From: a virus
Lineage: Duplodnaviria > Heunggongvirae > Uroviricota > Caudoviricetes
Direction: 5' to 3' (one strand)
IMG/VR virus record: IMGVR_UViG_3300028103_000015
DNA length: 64,000 nt
Made by a program: the position numbers and the translations under genes. Below, piece by piece: positions 3,610-46,708 of this stretch. Each line of letters opens with the position of its first letter. Within the stretch, counting starts at the first letter, position 1. Below the pieces are notes generated by a model. That model saw only the letters and a program-made list of their open reading frames with translations. It made no database searches and was not told the DNA's origin.

Positions 3610-4107
3610 ATGGCAAAAATTAAGAAATATCAAGACGGTGGTAAGTCCTCCCTTGGTATGAAATCTGTTAAAGCTGGATATGATAAGAATCCTGGTGTAA
3701 CAAGGGCAGACATTATTGTAGCTGCTAAGAAGGAAGCTAAATCAGGAGCAAAGGTTAAGAAGGCTCAAGCTGGTAGCAAAGTGGCTCTTCGTACAGCTCA
3801 ATTGAGAAGACTAGGCAGACTTTCTGCTAAGAACCCAGCTAAGGCAGAACAAGTGGGATCTAAGATGGTAGAGAAAGCTACACGCGTATCACGTGGTAAA
3901 GACTACTTGAAGAAGAACATCAGCAGTCTTATGCCTGAATCACGCAAGGGTAGCAAGGTGAAGAAAGCACGTAACGGAGCTACACTATCTCCTTCTAAAA
4001 AGAGTGTTTCTTCTGAGCTCGGTAGCTATAAGCGTGTAGCTGGAAAGAACCTTTCTAAGATGAAGATGGGTGGTTCTATGAAAAAATGCAGAGGAGGTTG
4101 CTATTAA
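3610..4107 (+). CDS. lysine-rich basic protein 5
   Basis: 165 aa. Starts MAKIKKYQDGGK; the first 8 aa are identical to protein 1. An internal KKAQAGSK repeat echoes protein 2. Confidence 0.7.
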   Translation: MAKIKKYQDGGKSSLGMKSVKAGYDKNPGVTRADIIVAAKKEAKSGAKVKKAQAGSKVALRTAQLRRLGRLSAKNPAKAEQVGSKMVEKATRVSRGKDYLKKNISSLMPESRKGSKVKKARNGATLSPSKKSVSSELGSYKRVAGKNLSKMKMGGSMKKCRGGCY

Positions 4108-4108
4108 T

Positions 4109-4249
4109 ATGAAAGCAGGAAAACCAAAGAAGGCCCCAAAGGTGCCACCACCTAAGCCTATCAATGCCAATTATATGAAAGAGGCTGATACCAAACTTAG
4201 GAGGTCCAGTAAAATGTGGCCCATGAAATCAAAACGTCTATCTAAATAG
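4109..4249 (+). CDS. small basic protein 6 (46 aa; not in the ORF track because it is under 60 aa)
   Basis: ATG at 4109, 2 nt after the upstream stop, and TAG at 4247. Translation: MKAGKPKKAPKVPPPKPINANYMKEADTKLRRSSKMWPMKSKRLSK. Confidence 0.4.
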   Translation: MKAGKPKKAPKVPPPKPINANYMKEADTKLRRSSKMWPMKSKRLSK

Positions 4250-4280
4250 TTATTGTTTCATAGTGTTGTTTGTTTAATAA

Positions 4281-4312
4281 AAGCCTCTTTTATCAAGAGG
4301 CTTTTTTATTTT
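4281..4312 (+). terminator. rho-independent terminator closing the basic-protein operon
   Basis: Perfect 9-bp stem AAGCCTCTT/AAGAGGCTT with loop TTATC, followed by TTTTATTTT. Confidence 0.7.
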
Positions 4313-4318
4313 CATCAT

Positions 4319-4951
4319 ATGGTAAAACTAACATGTATATGTCCTGTGTGGAAAAGACCACAGAGAACTATCAGAGCCATAGAGTCTGTTGTAGCCCAGA
4401 AGTTTGATGGTTGGGAGGCGCTGTTTATTGGAGACAAATGCCCAGAGTTTCAAAAGAATATTGACGAGGGTGTATTTAAGAAATACGAAGAACAGGTGGC
4501 AGCTACAGGCAATCACATCCTCTTCCATAATATGGATGAACATTTTGGTGGATGGGGACATGGAGCACGCAAATATGGTATTGACATAGCTCAAGGAGAA
4601 TATGTATGCTTCCTAGACAACGATGATGTCCTATTACCAAATCATTTTGAGAACTATTACAGCTTTATGCAAGAGAATCCAGACATTCACGCAGGCTATT
4701 TTAATGCACGTACAGAGCCCTGGAAAAAGAACAGAACATCTTGTCTATCTAGAGGAGGCATTGGAAATGCAGAACTTATGATAAGAACAGATGTGCTCAG
4801 GAAAAACTATAGGCTAGATCCAGAATATGAACACGACTGGAGACTGGTGGATAGGATGTTAAACTACGGATATAAGTTTAAGAAGAGCAAAGCTGCTCCT
4901 ACATACATCATCATGAGTGTTCCTAACTACCGAGAAACCACTATTGACTAA
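4319..4951 (+). CDS. glycosyltransferase, GT-A fold / family 2-like
   Basis: DxD motif (FLDNDDV). The start is placed at the Met after the terminator, MVKLTCICPVWKRPQRT, a typical GT2 N-terminus. Confidence 0.65.
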   Translation: MVKLTCICPVWKRPQRTIRAIESVVAQKFDGWEALFIGDKCPEFQKNIDEGVFKKYEEQVAATGNHILFHNMDEHFGGWGHGARKYGIDIAQGEYVCFLDNDDVLLPNHFENYYSFMQENPDIHAGYFNARTEPWKKNRTSCLSRGGIGNAELMIRTDVLRKNYRLDPEYEHDWRLVDRMLNYGYKFKKSKAAPTYIIMSVPNYRETTID

Positions 4952-5631
4952 TGATTACAGTGATTATTCCTGCTTACAAGGCAACCAAATACATAGATGA
5001 ATGTCTTGCATCCCTGCAAGGGGCTGAGATATTAGTGGGAATAGATAATTGTAAAGAAACTTTTGACCATTTAGTGGGTAGAACAGACATAAAATCGTTC
5101 TATTTTGCACAAAATGTGGGACCGTTTGTTGTTAAAAACACATTAATAGACGAAGCTTCTAATGATAAAATCCTGTTCTTTGATTCTGATGATGTGCTTG
5201 CAGAGGGTGTGCTAGACAGAATAGAACAGGCGCTCAATATTGTAGACTATATAAAGCTCAATTACATCAACTTTACACACAATATAAATCCTAAAGGACA
5301 TGTAATGAATGATGCTGTAATAGCCATCAATCGTCCTGTGTTTAATGAGTTGAATGGATTCCAACCATGGAGATGTGGAGCTGATACAGAGCTAGCTAAG
5401 CGCCTTGAGTTCAATAAGAAGAAACATATAGTGCTAGATGATGTAACGTATTACAGAAGACTGCATGATAACAATCTCACTCTTAGGAAGGAAACAGGAC
5501 ATGGTTCTGTCATAAGACAGAAATATGTTCAATACATTGCTGCACACGAAAGATCTAAACAGTGGGAAAACCCAACACATAAACACACACAAGGATATGT
5601 TACTTATACAACAACCCATAGAGGAGCTTAA
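4951..5631 (+). CDS. glycosyltransferase family 2
   Basis: MITVIIPAYKATKYIDECLASL plus DSDD (DxD). Its ATGA start overlaps the upstream stop. Confidence 0.7.
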   Translation: MITVIIPAYKATKYIDECLASLQGAEILVGIDNCKETFDHLVGRTDIKSFYFAQNVGPFVVKNTLIDEASNDKILFFDSDDVLAEGVLDRIEQALNIVDYIKLNYINFTHNINPKGHVMNDAVIAINRPVFNELNGFQPWRCGADTELAKRLEFNKKKHIVLDDVTYYRRLHDNNLTLRKETGHGSVIRQKYVQYIAAHERSKQWENPTHKHTQGYVTYTTTHRGA

Positions 5632-6463
5632 AATAGCTCCTGAAGTGACAGTAGGAAATAGAAAGAGATATTCTACAGCCACAGCTGTAGCATGGATAAA
5701 TGATAACAAACTTGTATCAGCTGCCTTTAATAGCAGGAATATATATCTAATAGAGCTGAAAGACGATGGTACATCGCAGATATTGGATGTTATAAAAGCC
5801 CCATACAATCCAGACTTGATGGATTATAAAAATGGTATGATAGTCACATCAGACTATCCTTATTCAGATCAACATGGACATGCGTCCATATTTGATGTTG
5901 TAGATGATAAGATAGTGTACAGGAAGAGCATTACACTTCCTAACACCAAGTCTCATGGCTGTGAGATAGTGGATGATAACACTGTCATCATCACTAGTAA
6001 CAGTGACCACAATAAAGGCTGCCTGTTTGTAGACATCAATAAGGGGATAGTTAAAAGCACCCTAACAAACATGGACCACTATCCAAAAGATGCCTATATA
6101 AAGGATGACAGACTCTTAGTGATATGTGCAAAGAGTCTTCCCCAGATAGGACAAACCACCGTGATTGGTGAGTCTGTGCTCTACCTATTTGACCTATCTA
6201 CATTAAGTAGAATTAGTGAGGTGAGATTTCATGGACAGACTGACTCTCTCACCATGGATGGAAATGATGTGTTCATAACCATCCAAGGAGATGATACAGT
6301 GGCACATTGCACACTGATGGATGATGTATTGTCTTATTTTGGTAGAACTGGTGGATTCAACTTCCCACACGGTATAGATGCCCTAAATGGTAAAGTGGCT
6401 GTCACAAACTATGGAGACAACACTATTAGGATATATAACAAGGAAGAACTAAAGACCAATTAA
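5597..6463 (+). CDS. beta-propeller repeat protein (YVTN/lactonase-like) of unknown function
   Basis: Repeated ...DNTV...NGKVAVTNYGDNTIRIYN-type blades. The start is trimmed to the internal Met at 5597. Confidence 0.45.
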   Translation: MLLIQQPIEELKIAPEVTVGNRKRYSTATAVAWINDNKLVSAAFNSRNIYLIELKDDGTSQILDVIKAPYNPDLMDYKNGMIVTSDYPYSDQHGHASIFDVVDDKIVYRKSITLPNTKSHGCEIVDDNTVIITSNSDHNKGCLFVDINKGIVKSTLTNMDHYPKDAYIKDDRLLVICAKSLPQIGQTTVIGESVLYLFDLSTLSRISEVRFHGQTDSLTMDGNDVFITIQGDDTVAHCTLMDDVLSYFGRTGGFNFPHGIDALNGKVAVTNYGDNTIRIYNKEELKTN

Positions 6464-7102
6464 TGTCTTATAAGAGGATGCTGATGTAGCATTTTTCATG
6501 TAATACATAAACTCTTCACTAGCCTTAGCTTCCTCTATAGAGAATTCCCATGGGTAGTGTCTGGCCACATATGGAAATGTTGTAGACCCTCCACCTATAA
6601 AATACCCACCTAGCCTATATAGAGCAAACGTGGTATCTATTTGCACCTCAAGCGCCACATCTTCTTTAACAGGAGATTTCTGCCACCTGTCTCTTTCATA
6701 CAAATGCAGACGGTTATAATAGGGAGACTTGCTCTCCACCCTCTGCCAATCTAATCCTAACCCCACCTTATTCAATTCTAGGCTGTTCAATCTATCCTGC
6801 AGATAGAGAAGTGTGTCATTGGGTGTCTCTTCTAACCCCATGTCTGGGTCTGTAACAACATATGGACAGTCTTTAAACTGCCCCACTACACCCGCTAACC
6901 AGGGAGCAGCTACCCCTACATTATTATTTAACCTCATTATTGTACAGGGGTTGGTTGCATACCATTCTAGAAGAGGGGGATAGGTGGAGGCATTATCCAC
7001 AATAATCACATCCCCCACCCCGTCATATTCTTTTATTCTCTCCACCATAGCCTTAGGCCATGTGAGCAGATTTCTGTTATTTATTATAACTGGAATGTTC
7101 AT
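6449..7102 (-). CDS. putative glycosyltransferase (GT2-like)
   Basis: N-terminal MNIPVIINNRN...VIIVDNASTYP resembles the GT2 signature. Confidence 0.45.
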   Translation of the reverse strand: MNIPVIINNRNLLTWPKAMVERIKEYDGVGDVIIVDNASTYPPLLEWYATNPCTIMRLNNNVGVAAPWLAGVVGQFKDCPYVVTDPDMGLEETPNDTLLYLQDRLNSLELNKVGLGLDWQRVESKSPYYNRLHLYERDRWQKSPVKEDVALEVQIDTTFALYRLGGYFIGGGSTTFPYVARHYPWEFSIEEAKASEEFMYYMKNATSASSYKTLIGL

Positions 7103-7635
7103 CTCTTTTGTATGATAAGAAGTTTAGCATCGTTTACAAGGGTCATAAAGTGATCACGTCCATCTAACCACTCAGTGATCCTCTTGATAGTATCTTGTCT
7201 ATTGGCATGTCCAGCGTGTAAATCTTCAATAAAATAATATCCTCCTACTCTCAGATCTTCCCATAGTATTTTGAACGAAGCTACAATGTGATCACCCACA
7301 TGACTTCCATCATCAATAATAAAATGGGGTGCTCCACTTTTATCTATAACTCCTTTCATAAACTGTTTGTCTGACTGGTCTCCTATGTATATATTGAATC
7401 CAGACACATGGTTGTGCACATTAGGATCAATATCCACAGCATGTATGTCCAGTTCAGGATTGTATTCTCTCCACATTCTGAGAGAGTCCCCATGCCATAT
7501 TCCTATTTCTAGGAGTATATATCTTCCTGTCTCAGGAATGTACATATCATACACCTGTGTATATCCATGCTTCTCGTAGTGTTCTGTACCCTTGTCAGTT
7601 TTATTACGATTGGCAATTTCTGTAAGTCTTCTCAT
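7099..7635 (-). CDS. class I SAM-dependent O-methyltransferase (TylF/CmcI, Methyltransf_24-like)
   Basis: DKGTEH..Y and EIGIWHGDSLRMW (the SAM-binding GxWxGxS) match the macrocin/cephalosporin sugar O-MTase family. Confidence 0.6.
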   Translation of the reverse strand: MRRLTEIANRNKTDKGTEHYEKHGYTQVYDMYIPETGRYILLEIGIWHGDSLRMWREYNPELDIHAVDIDPNVHNHVSGFNIYIGDQSDKQFMKGVIDKSGAPHFIIDDGSHVGDHIVASFKILWEDLRVGGYYFIEDLHAGHANRQDTIKRITEWLDGRDHFMTLVNDAKLLIIQKR

Positions 7636-7639
7636 AAAA

Positions 7640-8206
7640 TTAGTTGTGTACGAATAACACTTTATTAATTTTCACAATGGGCTCGTCAGGGAACATCTCT
7701 CTGAACTTATTCACAAACCACCCATCAGCATCATATCTAACACCCAGCTCAATCTGCTGAGCTAAGTCTCTACGCGTGGCAAATGCTCCCATGTCAATTC
7801 TCCCATTGGCAGGCTCACATTGAAAATATGCATAGTCATAATGGGAATGCACCATATCCCAATAAATCATTCCTGGATTATTATTAGACGCAAGGGCTAT
7901 TTCTTTTATGAAGTTGGGAGTGTAATAGTTGTCATCTCCCGTCATTACAACATACTGGGCACTGCTCTGTTGCTTTCCATACTCCCTTGGTGTATGGCCA
8001 AAGTTGTTATAACGTATGTTCATCTTTGACCACATGATTCTCTTGTCCATTAAGCTTTGTACAAGCTGTACATTCTCTACATCCTCTGGATTGTCAATAA
8101 CAACGTGTGCCACCCAGTCTGGATGGGTTTGTGCTAATAGAGACAACAACATGCTTTTTAAGGGAACAATGCGATTATATGTTGGAATTATGAAGTCTAC
8201 TAACAT
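7640..8206 (-). CDS. glycosyltransferase family 2
   Basis: FIIPTYNR near the N-terminus and TGDDNYY (DxD). Confidence 0.7.
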   Translation of the reverse strand: MLVDFIIPTYNRIVPLKSMLLSLLAQTHPDWVAHVVIDNPEDVENVQLVQSLMDKRIMWSKMNIRYNNFGHTPREYGKQQSSAQYVVMTGDDNYYTPNFIKEIALASNNNPGMIYWDMVHSHYDYAYFQCEPANGRIDMGAFATRRDLAQQIELGVRYDADGWFVNKFREMFPDEPIVKINKVLFVHN

Positions 8207-8912
8207 AGTCTTTCAGCATTTGTGTGTAGTCGTGATTCCAATGAGGCTTAAGCTCTATTTCTCCTGTAGGTATTTTACCCTGCGCTCTTAAGTTTTCTAC
8301 GTGTAAACTATGTCTTTGTATGACATTGGGTTTGCCAGGAACATCGTGTCCTTGTCCAGACATGTGATATCCTCTGCCTCCCCACATATAAAACCAACTA
8401 GCTTCTTCTTTAGGAGGAGATGCAAAGAGTCTTCCACCATGAGCATGTAAACGTTCTATGAATGTCATATCATATCCAGCATTCTCAATAGGATGGCCAC
8501 CTATGGCTTCCCATGCAGACTTCCTAAATACAATACCAGAATTCCCTATCCATGTAATATCTGTTATTCTATCACCATTAAAGAACACTCCTGGGTTCCA
8601 ATGCATGATGTTCACATCATCTGTGAAATATTTAGCTACATTCTGTAAATGCCAAGGAACAGCAACATCATCATCATCCCACTGGCATATAATATCTCCT
8701 TTACAGATGTCTGTAGCGTAGTTTTCTTTGTCACCAATGGTGCTAAAGGTGTAATCCAGGTTGTATATTCTCACCTGTGGATGATTATATCTCAGCTTCT
8801 GCAGAGGATAGTCATTCACTATAACTAGCTCACACCTGTCTGCAGGGTAGTCCTGCTTGAGGAAAGAATGTAAACTCTCCTCAAGCGTATCCACCCTACC
8901 ATAAGTGATCAT
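8175..8912 (-). CDS. glycosyltransferase family 2-like
   Basis: MITYGRVDTLEESLHSFLKQ and QWDDDDV (DxD). Start trimmed to Met9 of the ORF 8175..8936. Confidence 0.6.
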   Translation of the reverse strand: MITYGRVDTLEESLHSFLKQDYPADRCELVIVNDYPLQKLRYNHPQVRIYNLDYTFSTIGDKENYATDICKGDIICQWDDDDVAVPWHLQNVAKYFTDDVNIMHWNPGVFFNGDRITDITWIGNSGIVFRKSAWEAIGGHPIENAGYDMTFIERLHAHGGRLFASPPKEEASWFYMWGGRGYHMSGQGHDVPGKPNVIQRHSLHVENLRAQGKIPTGEIELKPHWNHDYTQMLKDYVSRLHNSNI

Positions 8913-8913
8913 T

Positions 8914-9216
8914 TTACATGATATTAGTGGCAGCATAAAAACGTTCTACATCTTCTGATTCTAAATAGATTTCACTCTGAAAGGTGTTTCTCTGACGTTT
9001 AACACCCTTCACCTTATTGTTTCTAGGATCTACGTCAGGTACTTCCTGACTTCTTTCATGTAAATCATCTAACAAGACTAACAGTCTTCCATCCTCAATA
9101 CCCACAGTGCGAATCACCTTGTTCATGTTAAAGCTGTCTCTAAATACATTGTACACAGGATTGTCTGGTGTACCGCTCTTAAGCTCCTTACGAGTGTAAA
9201 AGAATTGATTTTTCAT
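8914..9216 (-). CDS. hypothetical protein
   Basis: 100-aa ORF tiling the leftward operon. Confidence 0.45.
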   Translation of the reverse strand: MKNQFFYTRKELKSGTPDNPVYNVFRDSFNMNKVIRTVGIEDGRLLVLLDDLHERSQEVPDVDPRNNKVKGVKRQRNTFQSEIYLESEDVERFYAATNIM

Positions 9217-34760: not shown

Positions 34761-35011
34761 GGCTTTTCTGTTTTAGTGTATAATAATGTTTCGAATGCAT
34801 CTGCAGCCTTTGGATCTTCATCCTTGAGCATGTCTAGAGCTAGTTGATAACGTGTAAGCTCTTGTATTAGGCTGTCTTTAGCTATATCACCACCCTCAAT
34901 CATACAATCAGCTTCCATCTTTCTCAATGTGATGTTCTGATTAATAACGATGTACACTATGCCTATAAATGCTATAGCTGTCAATGTACGTTCTAAAGTT
35001 TCTGATTTCAT
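34757..35011 (-). CDS. small membrane protein (single N-terminal TM)
   Basis: LTAIAFIGIVYIVI TM segment. 4-nt overlap with the lipoprotein gene. First gene of the leftward operon. Confidence 0.5.
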   Translation of the reverse strand: MKSETLERTLTAIAFIGIVYIVINQNITLRKMEADCMIEGGDIAKDSLIQELTRYQLALDMLKDEDPKAADAFETLLYTKTEKP

Positions 35012-35046
35012 ATATAATTGATTTACAATTGATTATGTGATGAATT

Positions 35047-35075
35047 TGCATGAATTTTACCGAAAATGTCATGCA
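35047..35075. promoter_or_regulatory. 7-bp inverted repeat TGCATGA-N15-TCATGCA
   Basis: Seen directly. Lies 36-64 nt upstream of the first leftward gene. Confidence 0.35.
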
Positions 35076-35086
35076 TTTACTTCCTG

Positions 35087-35122
35087 ATTTGGCTGATTAT
35101 GAGCTACAAAACTCAGCCAAAT
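35087..35122. promoter_or_regulatory. operator-like perfect 10-bp inverted repeat ATTTGGCTGA-N16-TCAGCCAAAT
   Basis: Seen directly. ATGAGCTA direct repeats lie at 35098 and 35121. Confidence 0.45.
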
Positions 35123-35161
35123 GAGCTATAATGTGACTTATATGGGACAAATACACCGCAA

Positions 35162-35183
35162 AATGTGCGTTTTATGACACATT
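35162..35183. promoter_or_regulatory. palindrome AATGTG-N10-CACATT
   Basis: Half-site related to the AAAGTG..CACTTT repeats. Confidence 0.3.
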
Positions 35184-35233
35184 ATTCAACACAAACCGTG
35201 CTTGATGGTGCTTTTTGCATATAATTTCATCAT

Positions 35234-35322
35234 AAAGTGCATTATTATACACTTTTACGTATAATTTGTTCCTCATGAATGATATTACTGCTTAAAAGTG
35301 CATTCTGTTACACTTTTACGTA
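35234..35322. promoter_or_regulatory. two 28-bp direct repeats, each internally palindromic (AAAGTG-N12-CACTTTTACGTA), spaced 61 bp apart
   Basis: 35234..35261 and 35295..35322 are identical except for 4 central positions. Confidence 0.45.
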
Positions 35323-35602
35323 CTTAAAAATGTAACAAAAAGAAGCAGCCCATATTGCAGAGCTGCTTCAGAGTTACAGCACTTAGTAACCCAACCCTTC
35401 TAGAAATGCTGCATCAGCTATCACCAATATGTCTCCTTTTGAATAAGTACATTCAAAGAAGATGCGAAGCTGATTAGCTAATTTCTGGAAGTTCCTAAAA
35501 TCTTTTACGTCTGTAAATTTTACGGTTTTCATTTTGCTTTGTATTTGAAGGGTGAATAAATACTTTGTCGCATAAATATAGCAATAAATAGCCAAACCAC
35601 CA

Positions 35603-35637
35603 AATAAAAAAAAGCTCCCGTATAGACATACAGGAGC
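35603..35637 (-). terminator. rho-independent terminator (leftward transcripts)
   Basis: Stem GCTCCCGTAT/ATACAGGAGC, followed on the minus strand by T8. Confidence 0.55.
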
Positions 35638-35748
35638 GTTCATTAAAAATGAAATAGTCAACCAAAACAACTGTTGGGATCTGTCCCCTAGTTATTAGCT
35701 AAGACTCAATGTATCCTAGCATGAGATGTACGACCATCAACCAATATC

Positions 35749-35967
35749 CTATGAATTATTTTTAATGTATTCTGCTACCATCAGCTCCCTCATCCTACCT
35801 CTTGTCCTCCTAGGCAAATCATTATCCCTAGCAAACCTGTGTAATGTTCTTTCTGTAAGCCCTGTAGCATTACATATGTCCTTCATTGTTGGAAACCTAT
35901 TTATGTCATACCAACATTTCTTGACAATACGCACCTTCATGTCATATATATTAAGATTCTCTTCCAT
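35749..35967 (-). CDS. AlpA/Xis-like helix-turn-helix DNA-binding protein
   Basis: TMKDICNATGLTERTLHRFARDNDLP matches the AlpA-family HTH pattern. Confidence 0.5.
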   Translation of the reverse strand: MEENLNIYDMKVRIVKKCWYDINRFPTMKDICNATGLTERTLHRFARDNDLPRRTRGRMRELMVAEYIKNNS

Positions 35968-36109
35968 ATGTTCCCTGTTTTAATAGCCTATATCCTTCCT
36001 CTATATCAGCAGCTAATTTAGCCACTTGTTCGTCTGTATACGTCTCAAGTTCTTCAAGCTTCCATGTTGTGTTGTCAAGGATGTAATCAATAAGTTGTTG
36101 TCTGGTCAT
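35951..36109 (-). CDS. hypothetical small protein
   Basis: ORF 35951..36166 trimmed to Met20 so that it does not run into the tRNA-like element. Confidence 0.3.
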   Translation of the reverse strand: MTRQQLIDYILDNTTWKLEELETYTDEQVAKLAADIEEGYRLLKQGTYGRES

Positions 36110-36140
36110 AATACATGGTTTAAATGAATAAATAGTGTGT

Positions 36141-36241
36141 GCAGCTGGAGGGACTCGAACCCTCATTTCCTGGTATTAACCACGTAAACATGGCATCTCT
36201 CCCTTATCTTTTACATTTCCATACATTAGAGAGCCAGCTGC
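36141..36241 (-). other. tRNA-derived element: perfect T-arm (GAGGG-TTCGAGT-CCCTC) plus a 7-nt acceptor 3' strand, with a complementary 5' strand 100 nt away; not foldable as a canonical tRNA
   Basis: The plus strand carries GGACTCGAACCCTC at 36150..36163 and CAGCTGC at both 36142..36148 and 36234..36240. There is no workable D-arm or anticodon arm. Confidence 0.5.
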
Positions 36242-36414
36242 ATAAAATGGTTGATTAATGCTATATTTATGTCCTATTTGGCCGATGTGTCCTATTATCA
36301 ATTTACCCCTTATAAGTGTCTATGGGTCACACTGCATCTCTCTAACACACTGAGAATCAATTGATTACACCCACCCTACGCAACAAAACACCATTGCCCA
36401 CCCATATATACAAT

Positions 36415-36451
36415 GGGAAAAAAGAAAGACTCCCGTGGGTGAGAGCCTTTC
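36415..36451 (-). terminator. terminator-like hairpin after gene 36461..36865
   Basis: Imperfect 11-bp stem GAAAGACTCCC/GAGAGCCTTTC with a T-rich tail on the minus strand. Confidence 0.4.
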
Positions 36452-36460
36452 TTGGTTAGT

Positions 36461-36865
36461 TTAGAACGGTGAGCTTGCAAGAGCCTTGAGAGATTCTTCT
36501 GTAAGACCAGCAGAGCTAGCCTGTGTGCGAATCTCTTGAGCAATCTCAATGTCTAACAAGCTTGCGTCAGCATGAGCCTGCTTGATTTCATCGCGTGTCT
36601 TGAACGCACTAAGAGCTGTAAGCCTGTCTGATGTCACAGGAAGACCTTTCTCATCAACAACAGGATTGCCTTTCAAATCAAGCTGTCCAATCTGCTTAAT
36701 CGTAGCAATGCAATAGAATGGGAACTTAACGTCTGTTTGACTTTCCCAACCAAGAGCCTGCATTTGACGCTTGAACAAATGGATTCTGTCTCCGAGTGCT
36801 GTGTAGCCTGAGAAATTACCGCTTGCTGTGAATGCTCCATTGTTGATGACATAATTCTTGTTCAT
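36461..36865 (-). CDS. hypothetical protein
   Basis: 134-aa ORF with its own upstream motif and downstream terminator. Confidence 0.55.
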   Translation of the reverse strand: MNKNYVINNGAFTASGNFSGYTALGDRIHLFKRQMQALGWESQTDVKFPFYCIATIKQIGQLDLKGNPVVDEKGLPVTSDRLTALSAFKTRDEIKQAHADASLLDIEIAQEIRTQASSAGLTEESLKALASSPF

Positions 36866-36917
36866 CTGTTTTTGTTTTTAAAGTTAATAATAAATAATAA
36901 ACCTATATCCGATAAAA

Positions 36918-36938
36918 GGTTTTGGGATGGATGATGGG
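36918..36938 (-). promoter_or_regulatory. conserved upstream motif copy C (plus-strand GGTTTTGGGATGGATGATGGG)
   Basis: One of three related motifs found just upstream of consecutive leftward genes. Confidence 0.4.
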
Positions 36939-36941
36939 AAA

Positions 36942-36962
36942 AAAGGGGAGCAATTCCCCTTT
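36942..36962 (-). terminator. rho-independent terminator after gene 36967..37281
   Basis: Stem AAAGGGGA/TCCCCTTT with a T-run on the minus strand. Confidence 0.5.
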
Positions 36963-36966
36963 ATTG

Positions 36967-37281
36967 CTAACTTACTAACTCAAGCCATTCTGCGTCTGGT
37001 TCATATTGCTCACAACTCTTCATTGCTGGTATTGTCAACCAATCCAGCATGTCTCTTTTCCTTTGGAAGGCAGCACCAATCACCTTGAATGACCCACTAA
37101 TATCTTCTCCCCACAGTGGGCTGAAGTCTTTTATATCTTTCATTTGGTCAGAGATTACAGCATAGAATGGTGTTTTCAATGAACCACTAATTAATTCAGG
37201 CAGGAAGAACATTTCTCCAAACATGTTCTGGCAAATGTTCATTGTCTTGTCAATGTGAAGAATAACTGTAACTTTAAACAT
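36967..37281 (-). CDS. hypothetical protein
   Basis: 104-aa ORF flanked by a motif and a terminator. Confidence 0.5.
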   Translation of the reverse strand: MFKVTVILHIDKTMNICQNMFGEMFFLPELISGSLKTPFYAVISDQMKDIKDFSPLWGEDISGSFKVIGAAFQRKRDMLDWLTIPAMKSCEQYEPDAEWLELVS

Positions 37282-37307
37282 AATGTATTGATTTATAGTT
37301 GTTTAAT

Positions 37308-37322
37308 GGTTTTGGAATGAAT
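37308..37322 (-). promoter_or_regulatory. conserved upstream motif copy B (GGTTTTGGAATGAAT)
   Basis: 26 nt upstream of the start at 37281. Confidence 0.4.
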
Positions 37323-37325
37323 AAA

Positions 37326-37348
37326 AAAAGCACGCATTGAGCGTGCTT
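37326..37348 (-). terminator. rho-independent terminator after gene 37347..37547
   Basis: Stem AAGCACGC/GCGTGCTT with T7 on the minus strand. Confidence 0.6.
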
Positions 37349-37547
37349 ATTCTCCGAATGCAACTAATTCATCCCACTCTTCAGGTGTCATTCCTGTTAG
37401 AATGAACTCCCTTTCATGTGGCTTGAGGTGAGGAAATGCATCCTGCACCTTAGCACCACTTAAGTAGGAATCAATCTGTTCTTCTGTAATGTCTAGCTCC
37501 ATTGTGTGTTGTTTGCCTGTCAATTGGCTTGTTGTTGTTACTAGCAT
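37347..37547 (-). CDS. hypothetical protein (66 aa, acidic)
   Basis: ORF flanked by a motif and a terminator. Confidence 0.5.
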   Translation of the reverse strand: MLVTTTSQLTGKQHTMELDITEEQIDSYLSGAKVQDAFPHLKPHEREFILTGMTPEEWDELVAFGE

Positions 37548-38010: not shown

Positions 38011-38133
38011 CCTATAGATAGAATGTGGTTAAATGGGTGTAAGTGGTGGATGGAATGGTCTGGGAGATGGAAAAAAGAGCATAATATAGCAATAAGCTAA
38101 AAGATTGTATTTGAACATGTTAGAATAACATTG

Positions 38134-45295: not shown

Positions 45296-45418
45296 AGTGA
45301 ATTATATTAATGCTATATTATACGGGAAAAACATTCACACAAATGCATAACTCTTTGCTATTCAATATACTCTGATTACTTTTACAAACGTATAAACCAA
45401 ACTTAAAATAAACTACAT

Positions 45419-46708
45419 ATGGCTGAGAACCTTGATACCCCGTCATTTGGCAACTTTAGTATTGAAAATACTATGGAAATGGGACCTGGAGGTGCAGAGC
45501 TTCTTAATGACTTGCTCTCTCCTGAAACTTCTACAAGCAATCCTGATCAGATTCAAGAGATTGTAAAGAACGTAGAAGATCCTGCTCCTGCTCCAAAACC
45601 TGAGGTGCCTAAAGGAAAAGAAATCGTTCCTCAACAAGATGGTAAAGAACCTTCTGCTCAGGACTTGATTTCAAACTTCCTTGGTGACAACACTGATGAA
45701 GAAGAGGAAGAAACACAACCTGTTGATCCTCAACCAGTTAAGAAGAAAGCTGGCGAAGCAAAACCTGCTGAAGCTGCTCCTGCTGCTGAAGAGGAATCAC
45801 AAGATGAGGAGACAGAACAAGTGAGTCAATTCACCGCACTTTCTCGTGACCTATTCAAACTTGGTGTCTTTTCAAAGGATGAAGATGAAGAAGATGCTGA
45901 CATCTCTACACCTGAAGCTTTCCTTGAGCGCTTCCAAAATGAGAAGAAGAAAGGAGCTGTTGAAATGGTGCAGAGCTTCATTGGTCAGTTTGGGGAAGAT
46001 TATCAACAAGCGTTTGATGCTATATTCGTAAAAGGCGTTAATCCAAAGGACTACTTTGGTACATATAATAACGTGACCAGCTTTGCTGAAATGGATTTGT
46101 CACAAGAGAATAATCAAGTGGCAGTGATAAAACAAGCACTAGCTGATCAGGGTTTTGAAACTGAAGACATTAACACAGAGGTTGAAAGACTCAAAAACTA
46201 CGGTGATTTGGAAAGCGTTGCTACAAAGCACCATAAAGTGTTGGTTAAAAAGGAAGCTGCAAAACTCCAACAAATGGAGCAAAGAGCTGAACAAGAACTC
46301 CAACAAAAGCAAGCAATCAAAAACCAATACATCCAGAATGTTCAGCAAGTTCTTAACGACAAGCTGAAATCTAAGGAGTTTGATGGTATACCCATCAATC
46401 CCAAGTTGGCAAACGAACTACAAGACTTCCTGCTGGTAGATAAGTATAAGACAGCAAACGGTGAGACCCTCACTGATTTCGACAAGACCATCTTGGAATT
46501 GAAGAGACCTGAGAACCATGCAACAAAGGTGAAAGTTGCTCTCCTGCTTAAAATCTTAGAAAAAGACCCTACATTATCTACCATCCAAAGAACAGGCGTT
46601 TCAAAGAAATCAAACGAGCTGTTTGGGGAAGTGGCTAGACAGGTTACAAAAACTAAGTCAGCAGTGGGTGGTGCACAGCCTTCTAAACAAAATTCATGGT
46701 TCTTATAA
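45419..46708 (+). CDS. putative scaffolding protein (acidic N-terminus, coiled-coil middle)
   Basis: EEEEE/PA-rich low-complexity stretch, then coiled coil. Lies between the portal region and the capsid candidate. Confidence 0.4.
   Translation: MAENLDTPSFGNFSIENTMEMGPGGAELLNDLLSPETSTSNPDQIQEIVKNVEDPAPAPKPEVPKGKEIVPQQDGKEPSAQDLISNFLGDNTDEEEEETQPVDPQPVKKKAGEAKPAEAAPAAEEESQDEETEQVSQFTALSRDLFKLGVFSKDEDEEDADISTPEAFLERFQNEKKKGAVEMVQSFIGQFGEDYQQAFDAIFVKGVNPKDYFGTYNNVTSFAEMDLSQENNQVAVIKQALADQGFETEDINTEVERLKNYGDLESVATKHHKVLVKKEAAKLQQMEQRAEQELQQKQAIKNQYIQNVQQVLNDKLKSKEFDGIPINPKLANELQDFLLVDKYKTANGETLTDFDKTILELKRPENHATKVKVALLLKILEKDPTLSTIQRTGVSKKSNELFGEVARQVTKTKSAVGGAQPSKQNSWFL

Follow-up and report, generated by a model that had tools for sequence, protein, structure and literature searches.

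The usual explanation of tRNA genes in phages is codon supply; lately they have also been seen as replacements for tRNAs cleaved by host immunity. The tRNA-Lys of phage T5 reportedly counters PARIS. The tRNA-Tyr of the same phage counters retron Ec78 (bioRxiv 10.1101/2023.03.15.532788). Mimicry of the acceptor and T-arm without decoding is displayed by the tRNA-like domain of tmRNA, the YrlA (Y RNA-like) RNAs of bacteria and phages, the 3′ TLS of plant RNA viruses and the vtRNAs of MHV68. The T4 RNAC/RNAD-type RNAs have tRNA-like features. These small stable phage RNAs, encoded beside tRNA genes without being tRNAs themselves, are of unknown role (PMC3014915) and have been reported as late RNAs (PMC9697503).

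The DNA analyzed here, a window of 64 kb (the whole stretch of 64,000 nucleotides), belongs to a crAss-like phage with a genome of approximately 110 kb and with ring and muzzle proteins of the crAss type. This genome corresponds to ENA contigs ERZ27251800 k141_356890 and ERZ27251589 k141_62333; contigs of the set derive from JGI freshwater samples and from runs such as SRR35818901, SRR31534977 and SRR31065624. The early, non-coding-rich hub of the phage coincides with the cumulative GC-skew minimum and holds, on the minus strand, a unit that we read, with a probability of roughly 0.55, as a discrete gene for a non-decoding tRNA-like RNA of about 102 nt, derived from tRNA-Leu(UAA), which is expressed, processed as a tRNA and active in trans as a tRNA mimic. 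A previous, sequence-only reading had described at this site a tRNA 3′ half and a complementary 5′ acceptor strand, GCAGCTG, and the minus-strand sequence is as it reported. Its headline was a candidate attP core; the interpretation favored by the evidence is the one it had listed as an alternative, a tRNA-like structured RNA with an insertion. The features of the region, in minus-strand order, are as follows.

36416..36452, minus strand: terminator-like hairpin with U-run, recognized from the sequence; the stem-loop and U tail lie in a weak ctRNA_p42d match
36254..36266, minus strand: promoter-like motif ATATAGCATTAAT, ending 12 nt upstream of G1, which follows 13 nt after the 12-nt core ATATAGCATTAA
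36140..36241, minus strand: tRNA-like RNA gene, 102 nt, from G1 (36241) to the discriminator A (36140)
36235..36241, minus strand: 5′ strand of the acceptor stem, GCAGCUG, forming seven Watson-Crick pairs with 36141–36147
36197..36233, minus strand: D-like arm, in which CUCUCU (36233–36228) pairs with GGGAGA (36202–36197)
36227–36203, minus strand: loop of the D-like arm, 25 nt, A-rich, with a UGGAAAU core
36179..36194, minus strand: anticodon-stem homologue GCCAUG-UUUA-CGUGGU, a 6-bp stem with a 4-nt UUUA loop (36188–36185)
36165..36178, minus strand: variable linker UAAUACCAGGAAAU, at the position of a class II variable arm and the least conserved part
36148..36164, minus strand: T-arm GAGGG-UUCGAGU-CCCUC, with a canonical T-loop
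36141..36147, minus strand: 3′ strand of the acceptor stem, CAGCUGC, followed by the discriminator A at 36140
36110..36139, minus strand: trailer/leader CACACUAUUUAUUCAUUUAAACCAUGUAUU, separating the RNA gene from the next ORF
35951..36109, minus strand: 52-aa ORF (MTRQQLIDYILDNTTW...), the first protein gene past the RNA; its homologue in related locus L119 starts at the equivalent ATG
35749..35967, minus strand: 72-aa HTH protein (previously read as AlpA/Xis-like), co-oriented, with a terminator after it at 35637–35614

The acceptor and T-stem consist of Watson-Crick pairs throughout (12/12), with UUCGAGU as the T-loop and A at position 73. The gene has no encoded CCA; the bases after the discriminator are CAC. 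The statement in the sequence-only reading that the intervening sequence cannot form D or anticodon arms needs to be amended: these 70 nt contain a 6-bp D-like stem and a 6-bp hairpin resembling an anticodon stem, although it is correct that they offer neither a 7-nt anticodon loop nor a canonical D-arm with U8. The UUUA tetraloop occupies the place of the expected 7-nt anticodon loop, and because of this tetraloop the element cannot decode; no register of the hairpin yields the 7-nt loop that a canonical tRNA has, along with U33 and a purine at 37. The D-arm is likewise not canonical, having G at position 8, a 6-bp stem and a 25-nt loop in which the UGG core alone is kept, as compared with a stem of 3–4 bp, a loop of 7–11 nt, U8, A14 and G18G19. 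With G at position 8 and a D-arm so far from canonical, an L-shaped fold is not assured.

A pattern composed of a 5-bp T-stem, a TTCRANN loop and a 7-bp acceptor stem within 35–160 nt occurs at exactly one site in the window, namely the element. With Watson-Crick pairs only, 0.005 sites are expected per window and 5 of 1000 dinucleotide shuffles contained a match; if G-U pairs are allowed the shuffles average 0.32 sites, and the geometry by itself is therefore weak. The sequence GGTTCRANTCC was found once in the window, against 0.13 expected. A four-helix cloverleaf was predicted de novo by RNAalifold from the variants described below, the fold energy of the minus strand corresponds to z = −2.96, and covariance model R1 scores the minus-strand element at 137.5 bits. 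Running tRNA finders and covariance models, a check suggested with the sequence-only reading, produced no tRNA call. ARAGORN identified no tRNA or tmRNA in the window, which by this program has no canonical tRNA genes in its 64 kb, and no tRNA in intron mode; no Rfam family reached its gathering score for the element, the tRNA model RF00005 (29 bits) included. At E ≤ 10 the best match within the tRNA clan was the tmRNA model, over 17 nt of the T-arm only (11.9 bits). The earlier judgment that the element is tRNA-derived and yet not a canonical tRNA is congruent with these results and with the 4-nt loop and aberrant D-arm.

Judged by the sequence of its arms, the element is a descendant of a tRNA-Leu(UAA). 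Megablast of positions 35000–37500 against GenBank phages gave no match, and sensitive blastn returned only matches of 27–37 nt to the 3′ ends of T5-like tRNA-Leu genes (E = 0.5). The tRNA-Leu(UAA) of the T5-like Salmonella phage S147 (Demerecviridae; MH370386, 71327–71412) is identical to the element over the T-arm (17/17) and the anticodon stem CCAUG/CGUGG (10/10), and the two have in common five of seven acceptor pairs, the discriminator A and a long variable region. They also share the D-loop core UGGnAAU, which reads UGGCAAU in T5-like tRNA-Leu and UGGAAAU in the element. The S147 tRNA, of 86 nt, has a 7-nt loop (CUUAAAA), U8, a 3-bp D-stem and an encoded CCA. The element, by contrast, is 102 nt long, does not encode CCA, and has G8, the 4-nt UUUA loop and a 6-bp D-like stem around a loop of 25 nt. 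T5-like and crAss-like phages are unrelated lineages. In all of IMG/VR the combination CCATG..CRTGG..GGGTTCGAGTCCC is found only in a T5-like tRNA-Leu(TAA), one tRNA-Pro and the present element.

Four sequence variants (V1–V4) were found in at least six unrelated flank contexts and are alignable over exactly the 102-nt block, the homology beginning at AU|G1 and stopping at A73-CA in at least six contexts. The element of the window is identical to that of related loci L119 or L117 at 101 of 104 positions, and to that of L118 at 97 of 106. Conservation falls off steeply outside it: identity is 97% for the element, 65% for the homologous downstream ORF and 48–51%, the random level, for the upstream 300 nt. 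Within the early, non-coding-rich hub of related crAss-like phages the element changes position as a cassette.

Within the stems, 100% of the cells across the variants are paired. Two changes are one-sided with pairing kept, C5 to U in the acceptor stem of V2 (C-G to U·G) and, in the anticodon-like stem, the replacement of U52·G59 in V1 by U-A in V2–V4; the one compensatory pair is the outer pair of the T-stem, where G-C becomes A-U in V3 and V4. Because G·U pairs are A·C mismatches on the plus strand, the selected molecule is the minus-strand RNA. The D-like stem is invariant in every variant, and its loop differs only by an inversion of 7 nt in V2 and a single base in V4; the variable linker of V2, UAUUAACAAAGGAAAU, has undergone substitutions and a 2-nt insertion. 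Since no more than four sequence variants are known, the statistical support for covariation is weak: the observed score was reached by 155 of 500 column shuffles. Under transition bias, the four stem changes are not improbable.

Among the 84 related loci searched the element is rare, being found in one further phage lineage only; L001, which by the adjacent 134-aa protein is the closest relative found, lacks it. Covariance model R1, applied to 84 related and 10 further loci, detected near-identical copies only and no distant homologues. The V3 sequence is identical in unrelated contexts, which could reflect recent cassette transfer rather than long-term purifying selection. No partner protein was found to co-occur with the element, and the antisense targets of the 25-nt D-loop in the window, two 11-mers against 1.65 expected, are not above chance.

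The promoter-like motif has five sites in the window at no more than one mismatch, against 0.75 expected, and occurs at equivalent positions in nearly all of 80 related loci; in V2 the distance to G1 is 2 nt from the end of the motif, or 3 nt from that of the 12-nt core. We infer that ATATAGCATTAAT acts as a promoter. The hairpin at 36416..36452 closes the upstream 134-aa gene (36461–36865) and parts it from the RNA gene, so that the element lies downstream of a terminator and is co-oriented with its neighbors. Other weak Rfam matches (Spot_42, VrrA and ctRNA) are simply terminator hairpins. A 71-aa ORF call from 36166, which overlaps the T-arm, is probably an over-extension. In relatives the hub carries tRNA-Arg(UCU) or tRNA-like genes. 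The trailer motif TTATTCATTTAAACC, considered as a window-wide signal, has one exact copy and shows no enrichment.

The flanks of the element are of the maturation type, with AU at −2/−1 and, in the window, A73 followed by CAC; the AU directly before the acceptor 5′ strand is kept across all contexts. In the tRNA-like family as a whole, −1 is U in 120 of 140 and position 73 is A in 127 of 140, with CAA, CTA or CAC thereafter. The same flank pattern (AU; N73-CA) characterizes 224 canonical tRNAs of such phages.

The coaxial top half formed by the acceptor and T-arm is the recognition feature for RNase P, RNase Z and the CCA-adding enzyme, and for many tRNA-binding proteins as well. In the mechanism that we propose, the RNA would be transcribed leftward from the hub motif along with small early genes and, to judge from the AU|...|N73-CA flanks that it has in common with real tRNA genes, would be excised by the tRNA maturation enzymes of the host, after which CCA would probably be added. 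The product would be a trans-acting tRNA mimic barred from decoding, and might serve as a decoy, a sponge or a scaffold in relation to some factor specific for the elbow and acceptor end of tRNA. Candidate partners are a tRNA-targeting host defense or toxin, LeuRS, whose substrate recognition does not involve the anticodon, or a tRNA-modifying enzyme, and the conserved D-loop would give specificity. A conserved non-decoder derived from tRNA-Leu points to a third use of phage tRNA genes, tRNA mimicry in trans. Such genes escape gene finders or are wrongly labeled as unusual tRNAs; should the mimic reading hold, the tRNA counts of phage genomes mix two kinds of gene, and the element offers a handle on a host tRNA-binding factor that phages must occupy or disarm early.

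Like the element, the counter-defense tRNAs of T5 are phage tRNA-derived molecules located in early or accessory regions, and by analogy conflict with tRNA-targeting immunity would be the most plausible arena for a tRNA mimic. Unlike the element, they are functional decoding replacements for cleaved host tRNAs; lacking an anticodon loop, the element could, on this comparison, be a decoy or binder only. The resemblance to the T4 RNAC/RNAD-type RNAs is an analogy of kind and genomic setting, and the element is found in an early hub whereas the T4 genes lie among tRNA genes. The element has no tag ORF, no pseudoknots and no G3·U70, and is therefore not a tmRNA; tmRNA is tRNA-Ala-like and at least 250 nt long, while here the third pair is A3-U70 and the length 102 nt. 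YrlA RNAs are permuted, whereas the ends of the element are at the acceptor stem, and the plant RNA virus TLS is situated at the 3′ end of the genome, which the element is not.

Uncultured phages also possess tRNA-Leu-like genes built on an AGTCAGG scaffold, in which the top half is intact and the anticodon arm is closed or replaced. At least 137 distinct variants exist on at least 120 viral contigs, with up to six per genome inside tRNA clusters. They resemble the element in their AU|...|A-CA flanks and in occupying the same hub slot in relatives of the phage. The tRNA-Leu-like gene of L087 has a 7-bp stem capped by a UUUA loop, as in the window element, and in L005 another tRNA-Leu-like gene follows the GCAGAGGGAT motif, at the place where L254 holds an element of the window type. 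The AGTCAGG family differs in its acceptor, D-arm and T-arm sequences, its canonical D-arm and its hypervariable middle, and it passes the Rfam tRNA threshold (34–44 bits), which the window element does not; the latter has kept a remnant of the anticodon stem, has an expanded D-loop and, as a whole, hardly varies. Literature searches revealed no description of phage or crAss-like tRNA-like, decoy or non-canonical tRNA genes such as these, and a representative AGTCAGG-family sequence had no match among cultured-phage records. We suggest, tentatively and with a good deal of doubt, that the element may be one lineage of a broad unrecognized class of phage RNAs. In these a constant tRNA-Leu top half would be the scaffold for processing, stability and recognition, and the anticodon domain would be deliberately closed or swapped for a variable module, producing early decoys or aptamer carriers directed against tRNA-recognizing host factors, including tRNA-targeting immunity. 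Such a class, if real, would amount to a natural “tRNA-scaffold” system.

An alternative that we regard as rather unlikely is that the element acts in cis as a processing or “punctuation” element: its fold would recruit RNase P and RNase Z, the excised RNA would have no role, and through trimming of the promoter-proximal leader the downstream early mRNA would gain a defined or stabilized 5′ end. The promoter-like motif and the first ORF do lie immediately on either side of the element, and the partly conserved trailer, TTTATTCATTTAAA(A)CCATGTATTATG, travels with it in the V1, V3 and V4 contexts. Since cleavage needs the tRNA top half only, this would explain a dispensable anticodon loop, and the hypervariable middles of the AGTCAGG family are compatible. 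However, processing needs neither the 25-nt D-loop nor the anticodon-stem hairpin, yet both show little or no variation; the V2 element precedes other non-coding RNAs instead of an ORF, different sequences follow the element in L254 and L250, and many members of the family reside inside tRNA clusters where there is no mRNA to punctuate.

The conservation pattern also disfavors the degraded tRNA that the sequence-only reading had offered as another possibility, and we consider it improbable that this is a decaying tRNA-Leu(UAA) pseudogene which has lost its anticodon loop, gained a D-loop insertion and has no present function. The missing 7-nt loop, the G at position 8, the aberrant D-arm, the failure of ARAGORN and Rfam to recognize the element, and its rare and patchy distribution would all suit decay. 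Against this, the identity of the element far exceeds that of the homologous ORF and of the upstream DNA, pairing survives all four stem changes, the “defects” themselves (tetraloop and D-loop insert) are conserved in all variants, and the edges of homology fall sharply at the tRNA ends in at least six contexts.

It is very unlikely that the element is an unusual but functional decoding tRNA, in which the hairpin, with its two inner pairs opened, presents UUA or UUU in an 8-nt loop, UGUUUACR, or in which the loop is restored by editing or splicing. The tRNA-Leu(UAA) ancestry would agree with such a function, as would the analogous L087 hairpin with its UUUA center. However, the G59 to A change makes the closing pair stronger (U·G to U-A), where an open loop would call for the reverse; a pyrimidine would occupy position 37, and ARAGORN makes no call in intron mode. 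The window contains long uninterrupted standard-code ORFs, up to 1920 aa, and thus gives no sign of UAA recoding. An ochre suppressor, with UUA in the 8-nt loop, was rejected on two grounds: the variants have stronger loop-closing pairs, and reading by the standard code leaves the ORFs intact. A short intron was dropped as well: the anticodons given by ARAGORN in intron mode for the tRNA-like genes of relatives are mutually inconsistent, with none for the window element, and the sequence beside the D-arm and T-arm lacks the conservation expected of exons. Bacterial-type introns are not known to be so small.

An attP core requires the 3′ part of a tRNA alone and no 5′ acceptor strand. The element resembles the tRNA-derived attP/attB cores of tyrosine integrases in its T-arm and 3′ acceptor sequence, and the sequence-only reading had it as a candidate of this kind, a tRNA 3′ end for integrase-driven, site-specific integration into a host tRNA gene, pointing to the small HTH gene nearby, which it called AlpA/excisionase-like. 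That gene (35749–35967) does show HTH similarity, but a weak one: HTH_17 scores 18.1 bits (cutoff 27), Phage_AlpA gives E = 0.09 and phrog_66 E = 0.002. Comparison of the core with bacterial tRNAs had been named as the test that could refute the attP claim, and it came out negative. The 19-nt 3′ core, TTCGAGTCCCTCCAGCTGC, has nine exact matches in a set of one genome from each of 185,579 species; seven of these fall in GC-rich sequence where neither a tRNA structure nor an ARAGORN call is present, two are in intron-containing tRNAs of Asgard or uncultured archaea, and none is in a bacterial tRNA of this set, outside of which the phage host may lie. As had been noted, there is no integrase in the window; no integrase or recombinase family was found among its 38 ORFs or in precomputed Pfam tables for 10 kb on each side, a search that covered all but approximately 17–27 kb of the ~110-kb genome. 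The phage carries virion genes of the crAss type, for the ring and muzzle proteins, the 5′ acceptor strand and the middle of the 102-nt unit are conserved as strongly as the 3′ half, changes of the G·U type are tolerated, which is a property of RNA and not of a DNA core, and the element is found at several positions within phage genomes. We therefore hold the attP interpretation to be highly improbable.

A DNA-level inverted repeat serving as a protein-binding site or origin, with two palindromic GCAGCTGC copies bearing the PvuII-type CAGCTG in a hub at the GC-skew switch, has the palindromic acceptor sequence and the skew minimum in its favor but is scarcely credible, since V2 disrupts the palindrome in one arm only (GCAGTTG) with the RNA pairing kept, and since the canonical T-loop, the tRNA-Leu arm homology and the tRNA-type flanks are left unexplained. 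Another site of the promoter-like motif precedes the first plus-strand gene, at 38084.

The element is a 102-nt tRNA-like gene on the minus strand (G1 at 36241, discriminator A73 at 36140) and reads GCAGCUG-GC-UCUCU…(25-nt loop)…GGGAGAG-AU-GCCAUG-UUUA-CGUGGU-UAAUACCAGGAAAU-GAGGG-UUCGAGU-CCCUC-CAGCUGC-A. Its 7-bp acceptor stem and 5-bp T-stem pair by Watson-Crick rules throughout and its T-loop is canonical, in agreement with the sequence-only reading, which had recognized a tRNA-like acceptor and T-arm here. That reading also held the middle to be unable to form arms; de novo folding with RNAalifold contradicts this, giving a four-helix cloverleaf with a D-like stem and an anticodon-like hairpin of 6 bp each. 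A scan of the window for the acceptor/T-arm geometry returned one site; shuffled windows yield 0.005 on average if every pair must be Watson-Crick (a match in 5 of 1000 shuffles) and 0.32 when G·U pairs are permitted. The geometry is thus suggestive, and the case is built on comparative data. ARAGORN called no tRNA or tmRNA in the window, with or without intron mode, and Rfam reported nothing there at gathering level; at E≤10 the tRNA clan was represented by one T-arm match only (17 nt, 11.9 bits).

Weak blastn matches to the 3' ends of T5-like phage tRNA-Leu genes became informative once whole genes were read. The tRNA-Leu(UAA) of Salmonella phage S147 is GGAUCUG-UG-GUG-GAAUUGGCAAUA-CAC-A-CCAUG-CUUAAAA-CGUGG-CGCUUAAAUGAUU-GAGGG-UUCGAGU-CCCUC-CAGAUCC-A-CCA. 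The element has the same T-arm (17/17), anticodon stem (10/10, U·G pair included) and discriminator, together with five of the seven acceptor pairs and the D-loop core UGGnAAU; unlike the S147 gene, it has the loop UUUA in place of the 7-nt CUUAAAA and a remodelled, larger D-arm. Across IMG/VR, the pattern CCATG…CRTGG…GGGTTCGAGTCCC is found only in one T5-like tRNA-Leu(TAA), one tRNA-Pro and the element. The element is thus a tRNA-Leu(UAA) derivative.

The element was traced in IMG/VR, JGI, ENA and Logan contigs by exact-pattern scans and by following homologues of the downstream 52-aa ORF, which gave four sequence variants.

Variants of the element (L-numbers are other contigs)
V1: window, L106, L112; reference
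V2: L007/L008/L065/L066/L103/L118; relative to V1, C5→U, D-loop inversion, G59→A, variable linker rewritten with +2 nt
V3: L117/L122, L119, L254/L255; relative to V1, G59→A and T-stem outer pair G-C→A-U
V4: L250; as V3, plus one D-loop base

In all contexts homology is limited to the stretch from AU|G1 to A73-CA, whether the element follows the promoter-like motif (V1 and V2), a terminator (L119) or 180 nt of unrelated non-coding DNA (L117), lies 8 nt past the 3' end of another structured RNA (L254), or stands ahead of a ~200-nt conserved non-coding block (L250), a block that L247 and L249 carry without the element. V1 is 97% identical to V3 and 91.5% to V2; the upstream 300 nt show 48-51% identity and the homologous downstream ORF 65%. 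All paired cells stay paired across the variants, the stem changes comprising a single compensatory pair plus two substitutions on one side only. Read on the plus strand, the two G·U-type states would give A·C mismatches, and they also disrupt the DNA palindrome; this indicates that selection acts on the minus-strand RNA. A column-shuffle control on the four variants was not significant (155/500), and no statistical covariation is claimed. The element is a discrete, conserved cassette from tRNA-Leu with the top half intact, the anticodon arm closed, the D-loop enlarged and conserved, and flanks of tRNA type. The V2 D-loop carries an exact 7-nt inversion, TAATGTA→TACATTA (L118 2739-2745 versus window 36228-36222, minus strand), which makes a perfect hairpin with the adjoining AATGTA repeat and looks like a template-switch (quasi-palindrome) mutation.

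The window belongs to a crAss-like phage and includes genes for terminase, portal and major head protein. The phage genome also has genes for a 4013-aa protein and for CrAss_Ring_1, CrAss_Ring_2 and crAss_MUZ; the leftward module includes DNA polymerase, ribonucleotide reductase, rIIA/B, primase, helicases, and UvsX- and Sak4-like recombination proteins. This gene set is also present on contigs of 110-111 kb. The closest cultured terminases are those of Leptolyngbya phage Lbo-JY46 (39%), Cellulophaga phages phi17:2 and phi4:1 (32%) and gut crAss-like phages (26-29%). The element is situated in the divergence hub between the leftward and rightward modules, at the turn of the cumulative GC skew, co-oriented with early genes and behind a conserved promoter-like motif. 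The minus-strand order is a 134-aa gene, a terminator-like hairpin, the boxes TATATATGGGTGGG and AGGGTGGGTG, the motif ATATAGCATTAAT, a 12-nt spacer and the element, followed by a 30-nt leader, the 52-aa ORF, a 72-aa HTH ORF and a terminator. A public 71-aa gene call on 36 contigs (P0001; window 35951-36166, minus strand) starts at 36166, inside the T-arm of the element; since homologues (P0002, 52 aa; L119) favour a start at 36109, the public entry has probably been extended too far, over the RNA gene.

The motif ATATAGCATTAAT (ATATAGCATTAA) has five sites in the window at ≤1 mismatch, against 0.75 expected.

Promoter-like motif and associated boxes
36254-36266, minus strand: motif ATATAGCATTAAT
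38084-38095, plus strand: motif ATATAGCATTAAT
45307-45318, minus strand: motif ATATAGCATTAAT
35576-35587, plus strand: motif ATATAGCATTAAT
46014-46025, minus strand: motif ATATAGCATTAAT
36397-36410, minus strand: box TATATATGGGTGGG, conserved, ahead of the hub motif copy
36368-36377, minus strand: box AGGGTGGGTG, conserved, ahead of the hub motif copy

One ATATAGCATTAA site precedes the first rightward gene, and the motif is kept at two fixed, equivalent positions in almost all of 80 related loci. We infer that it is a promoter; since it is unlike sigma-70 and Bacteroidota consensus promoters, a phage polymerase may use it.

In relatives, the hub slot is occupied either by a canonical tRNA-Arg(UCU) (L031, L032, L034, L046, L049) or by a tRNA-Leu-like gene (L005, L018, L023, L063, L072-74, L082, L087) scoring 34-44 bits with the Rfam tRNA model. 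The scaffold of the latter, AGUCAGG-UG-GCG-GAAUUGGUAGA-CGC … ACAGG-UUCGAAU-CCUGU-CCUGACU-A, has an aberrant middle: L087 has a 7-bp stem with a UUUA loop, as in the element, in place of the anticodon arm, and the loop in L018 is 3-5 nt. A scan for the 3' half of this scaffold (in DNA, AGTCAGG-TG-GCG-GAATTGGTAGA-CGC ... ACAGG-TTCGAAT-CCTGT-CCTGACT-A) reached at least 120 viral contigs (L127-L246); at least 140 elements were recovered, at least 137 of them distinct, with lengths of 70-191 nt and up to six copies per 5 kb among the matches listed.

Examples of the AGTCAGG family
L005: 4066-4165
L018: 6703-6624
L023: 165-6
L063: 3835-3742
L072: 6082-5925
L082: 4007-3905 and 3413-3327
L087: 6140-6068
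L138: 285-3381
L150: 88-1403
also L144 and L169

These genes are interspersed with canonical tRNAs inside phage tRNA clusters, and combine a constant scaffold with a hypervariable middle in place of the anticodon and variable arms. ARAGORN called 33 of 137 among the matches listed, with "anticodons" that were inconsistent or of 2 or 4 nt. Cultured-phage records gave no match to a representative sequence; in uncultured phages the family is very widespread. Canonical tRNAs of these phages have AU at -2/-1 and CA after N73, and so do their AGTCAGG genes and the element; this argues that all three are matured by one tRNA-processing machinery. The sequence GCAGAGGGAUAU…AU precedes an AGUCAGG-type gene (L005) and a window-type element (L254) at equal distance; the two types are positional analogues. 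The 224 canonical tRNAs called by ARAGORN (L009-L088, L127-L246) mostly have AT or TT just before the gene, and the bases after the discriminator are C-A-A or C-T-A instead of CCA, so that CCA is not fully encoded in these phage tRNA genes.

We put at roughly 0.55 the probability that the element is an expressed, non-decoding tRNA mimic acting in trans. It would be transcribed from the ATATAGCATTAAT-type promoter and cleaved by RNase P following the conserved U(-1), a base that bacterial RNase P favours; 3' trimming past A73 and CCA addition would then yield a stable, L-shaped, non-decoding RNA, which might bind a factor recognising the acceptor end and elbow. Because the hub is a cassette-rich early region, with many small ORFs and non-coding RNAs, and because phage tRNAs act against tRNA-cleaving immunity (bioRxiv 10.1101/2023.03.15.532788), we prefer, by analogy, a role as decoy or sponge in host takeover or counter-defence. 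The element corresponds to no Rfam family and to nothing described in the literature searched; its nearest counterparts are the tRNA-Leu genes of phages and two RNAs of the T4 tRNA region, RNAC and RNAD, which are without known function (PMC3014915; PMC9697503). Taken by itself the window copy is a modest curiosity; the interest comes from a design recurring across many phages.

That the element serves purely in cis, for processing, is unlikely. A pseudogene is slightly more doubtful still, since pairing persists in all variants. We give very little credence to an odd decoding tRNA, for all its tRNA-Leu ancestry: a tetraloop on a 6-7-bp stem is unable to present an anticodon, G59→A tightens the loop-closing pair, and the standard code leaves the ORFs intact, so decoding was rejected.

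The proposal of an attP core beside an AlpA/Xis-like HTH gene hardly survives. A search of 185,579 bacterial and archaeal species, at one genome apiece, turned up nine perfect copies of the 19-nt core TTCGAGTCCCTCCAGCTGC, seven in high-GC sequence without tRNA structure or an ARAGORN call and two in archaeal tRNAs with an intron; no bacterial tRNA in this set carries it. None of the 38 window ORFs hit an integration/excision family, a weak HTH aside, and precomputed Pfam tables list no integrase within 10 kb on each side. Within this range, then, neither a matching host tRNA nor an integrase was found, the outcome that the sequence-only reading had said would point to a relic or a structured RNA instead; the 72-aa protein does resemble HTH_17/AlpA/phrog_66, at sub-threshold level. 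Equally improbable is a DNA-level element, whose palindrome the G·U-type states disrupt.

Archaeal tRNA genes in L092 (672-690) and L097 (3128-3216), from Promethearchaeota and an uncultured archaeon, start with GCAGCTG and end with GGGGGTTCGAGTCCCTCCAGCTGC; they have the acceptor stem of the element, an intron and a long variable arm, and the likeness is judged coincidental.

The hub of relatives contains a new structured RNA motif, ATGCACCATT-[hairpin, loop TTCCCAAGG]-CAG-[variable long hairpin]-CTGAGTGCAGAGGGA, in seven distinct examples of 81-126 nt.

Occurrences of the ATGCACCATT motif
L001: 4176-4301
L002: 4126-4221
L005: 3935-4057
L007: minus strand
also L020, L033 and L068

RNAalifold gave 25 pairs, with compensatory changes in 13, and a pseudoknot between loop UCCC and 3' GGGA is possible. 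The motif is absent from the window and has no match in Rfam; a tRNA-like gene often lies ~8 nt or less past it. The ~200-nt non-coding block of the same hub, CGTTCTGTATAATCCACAGATAGTATG...CTATTCCTAACCTAGCAATAGGGACAGCC...ACACCTGTAAGTTGGATAAATTAGGGTGTT (L002 ~3935-4125; L247 ~945-1140; L249 ~215-400; L250 ~287-480), is probably another structured RNA. The V2 phage has a second tRNA-like element of 138 nt (L065 6352-6215 = L007 3406-3269, L008 2087-2224), 350 nt downstream of the window-type element, with a CCCACAG/TTGTGGG acceptor, a GCAGG-TTCGATT-CCTGC T-arm and three long hairpins between them. A glycosyltransferase/methyltransferase cluster occupies window 4253-8936 and 10 kb leftward (L259/L260). 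It also has a multi-domain glycosyltransferase of 1150 aa and genes of the CTP-transferase-like and PfkB kinase types, and is an unusually large sugar-modification module for a phage.
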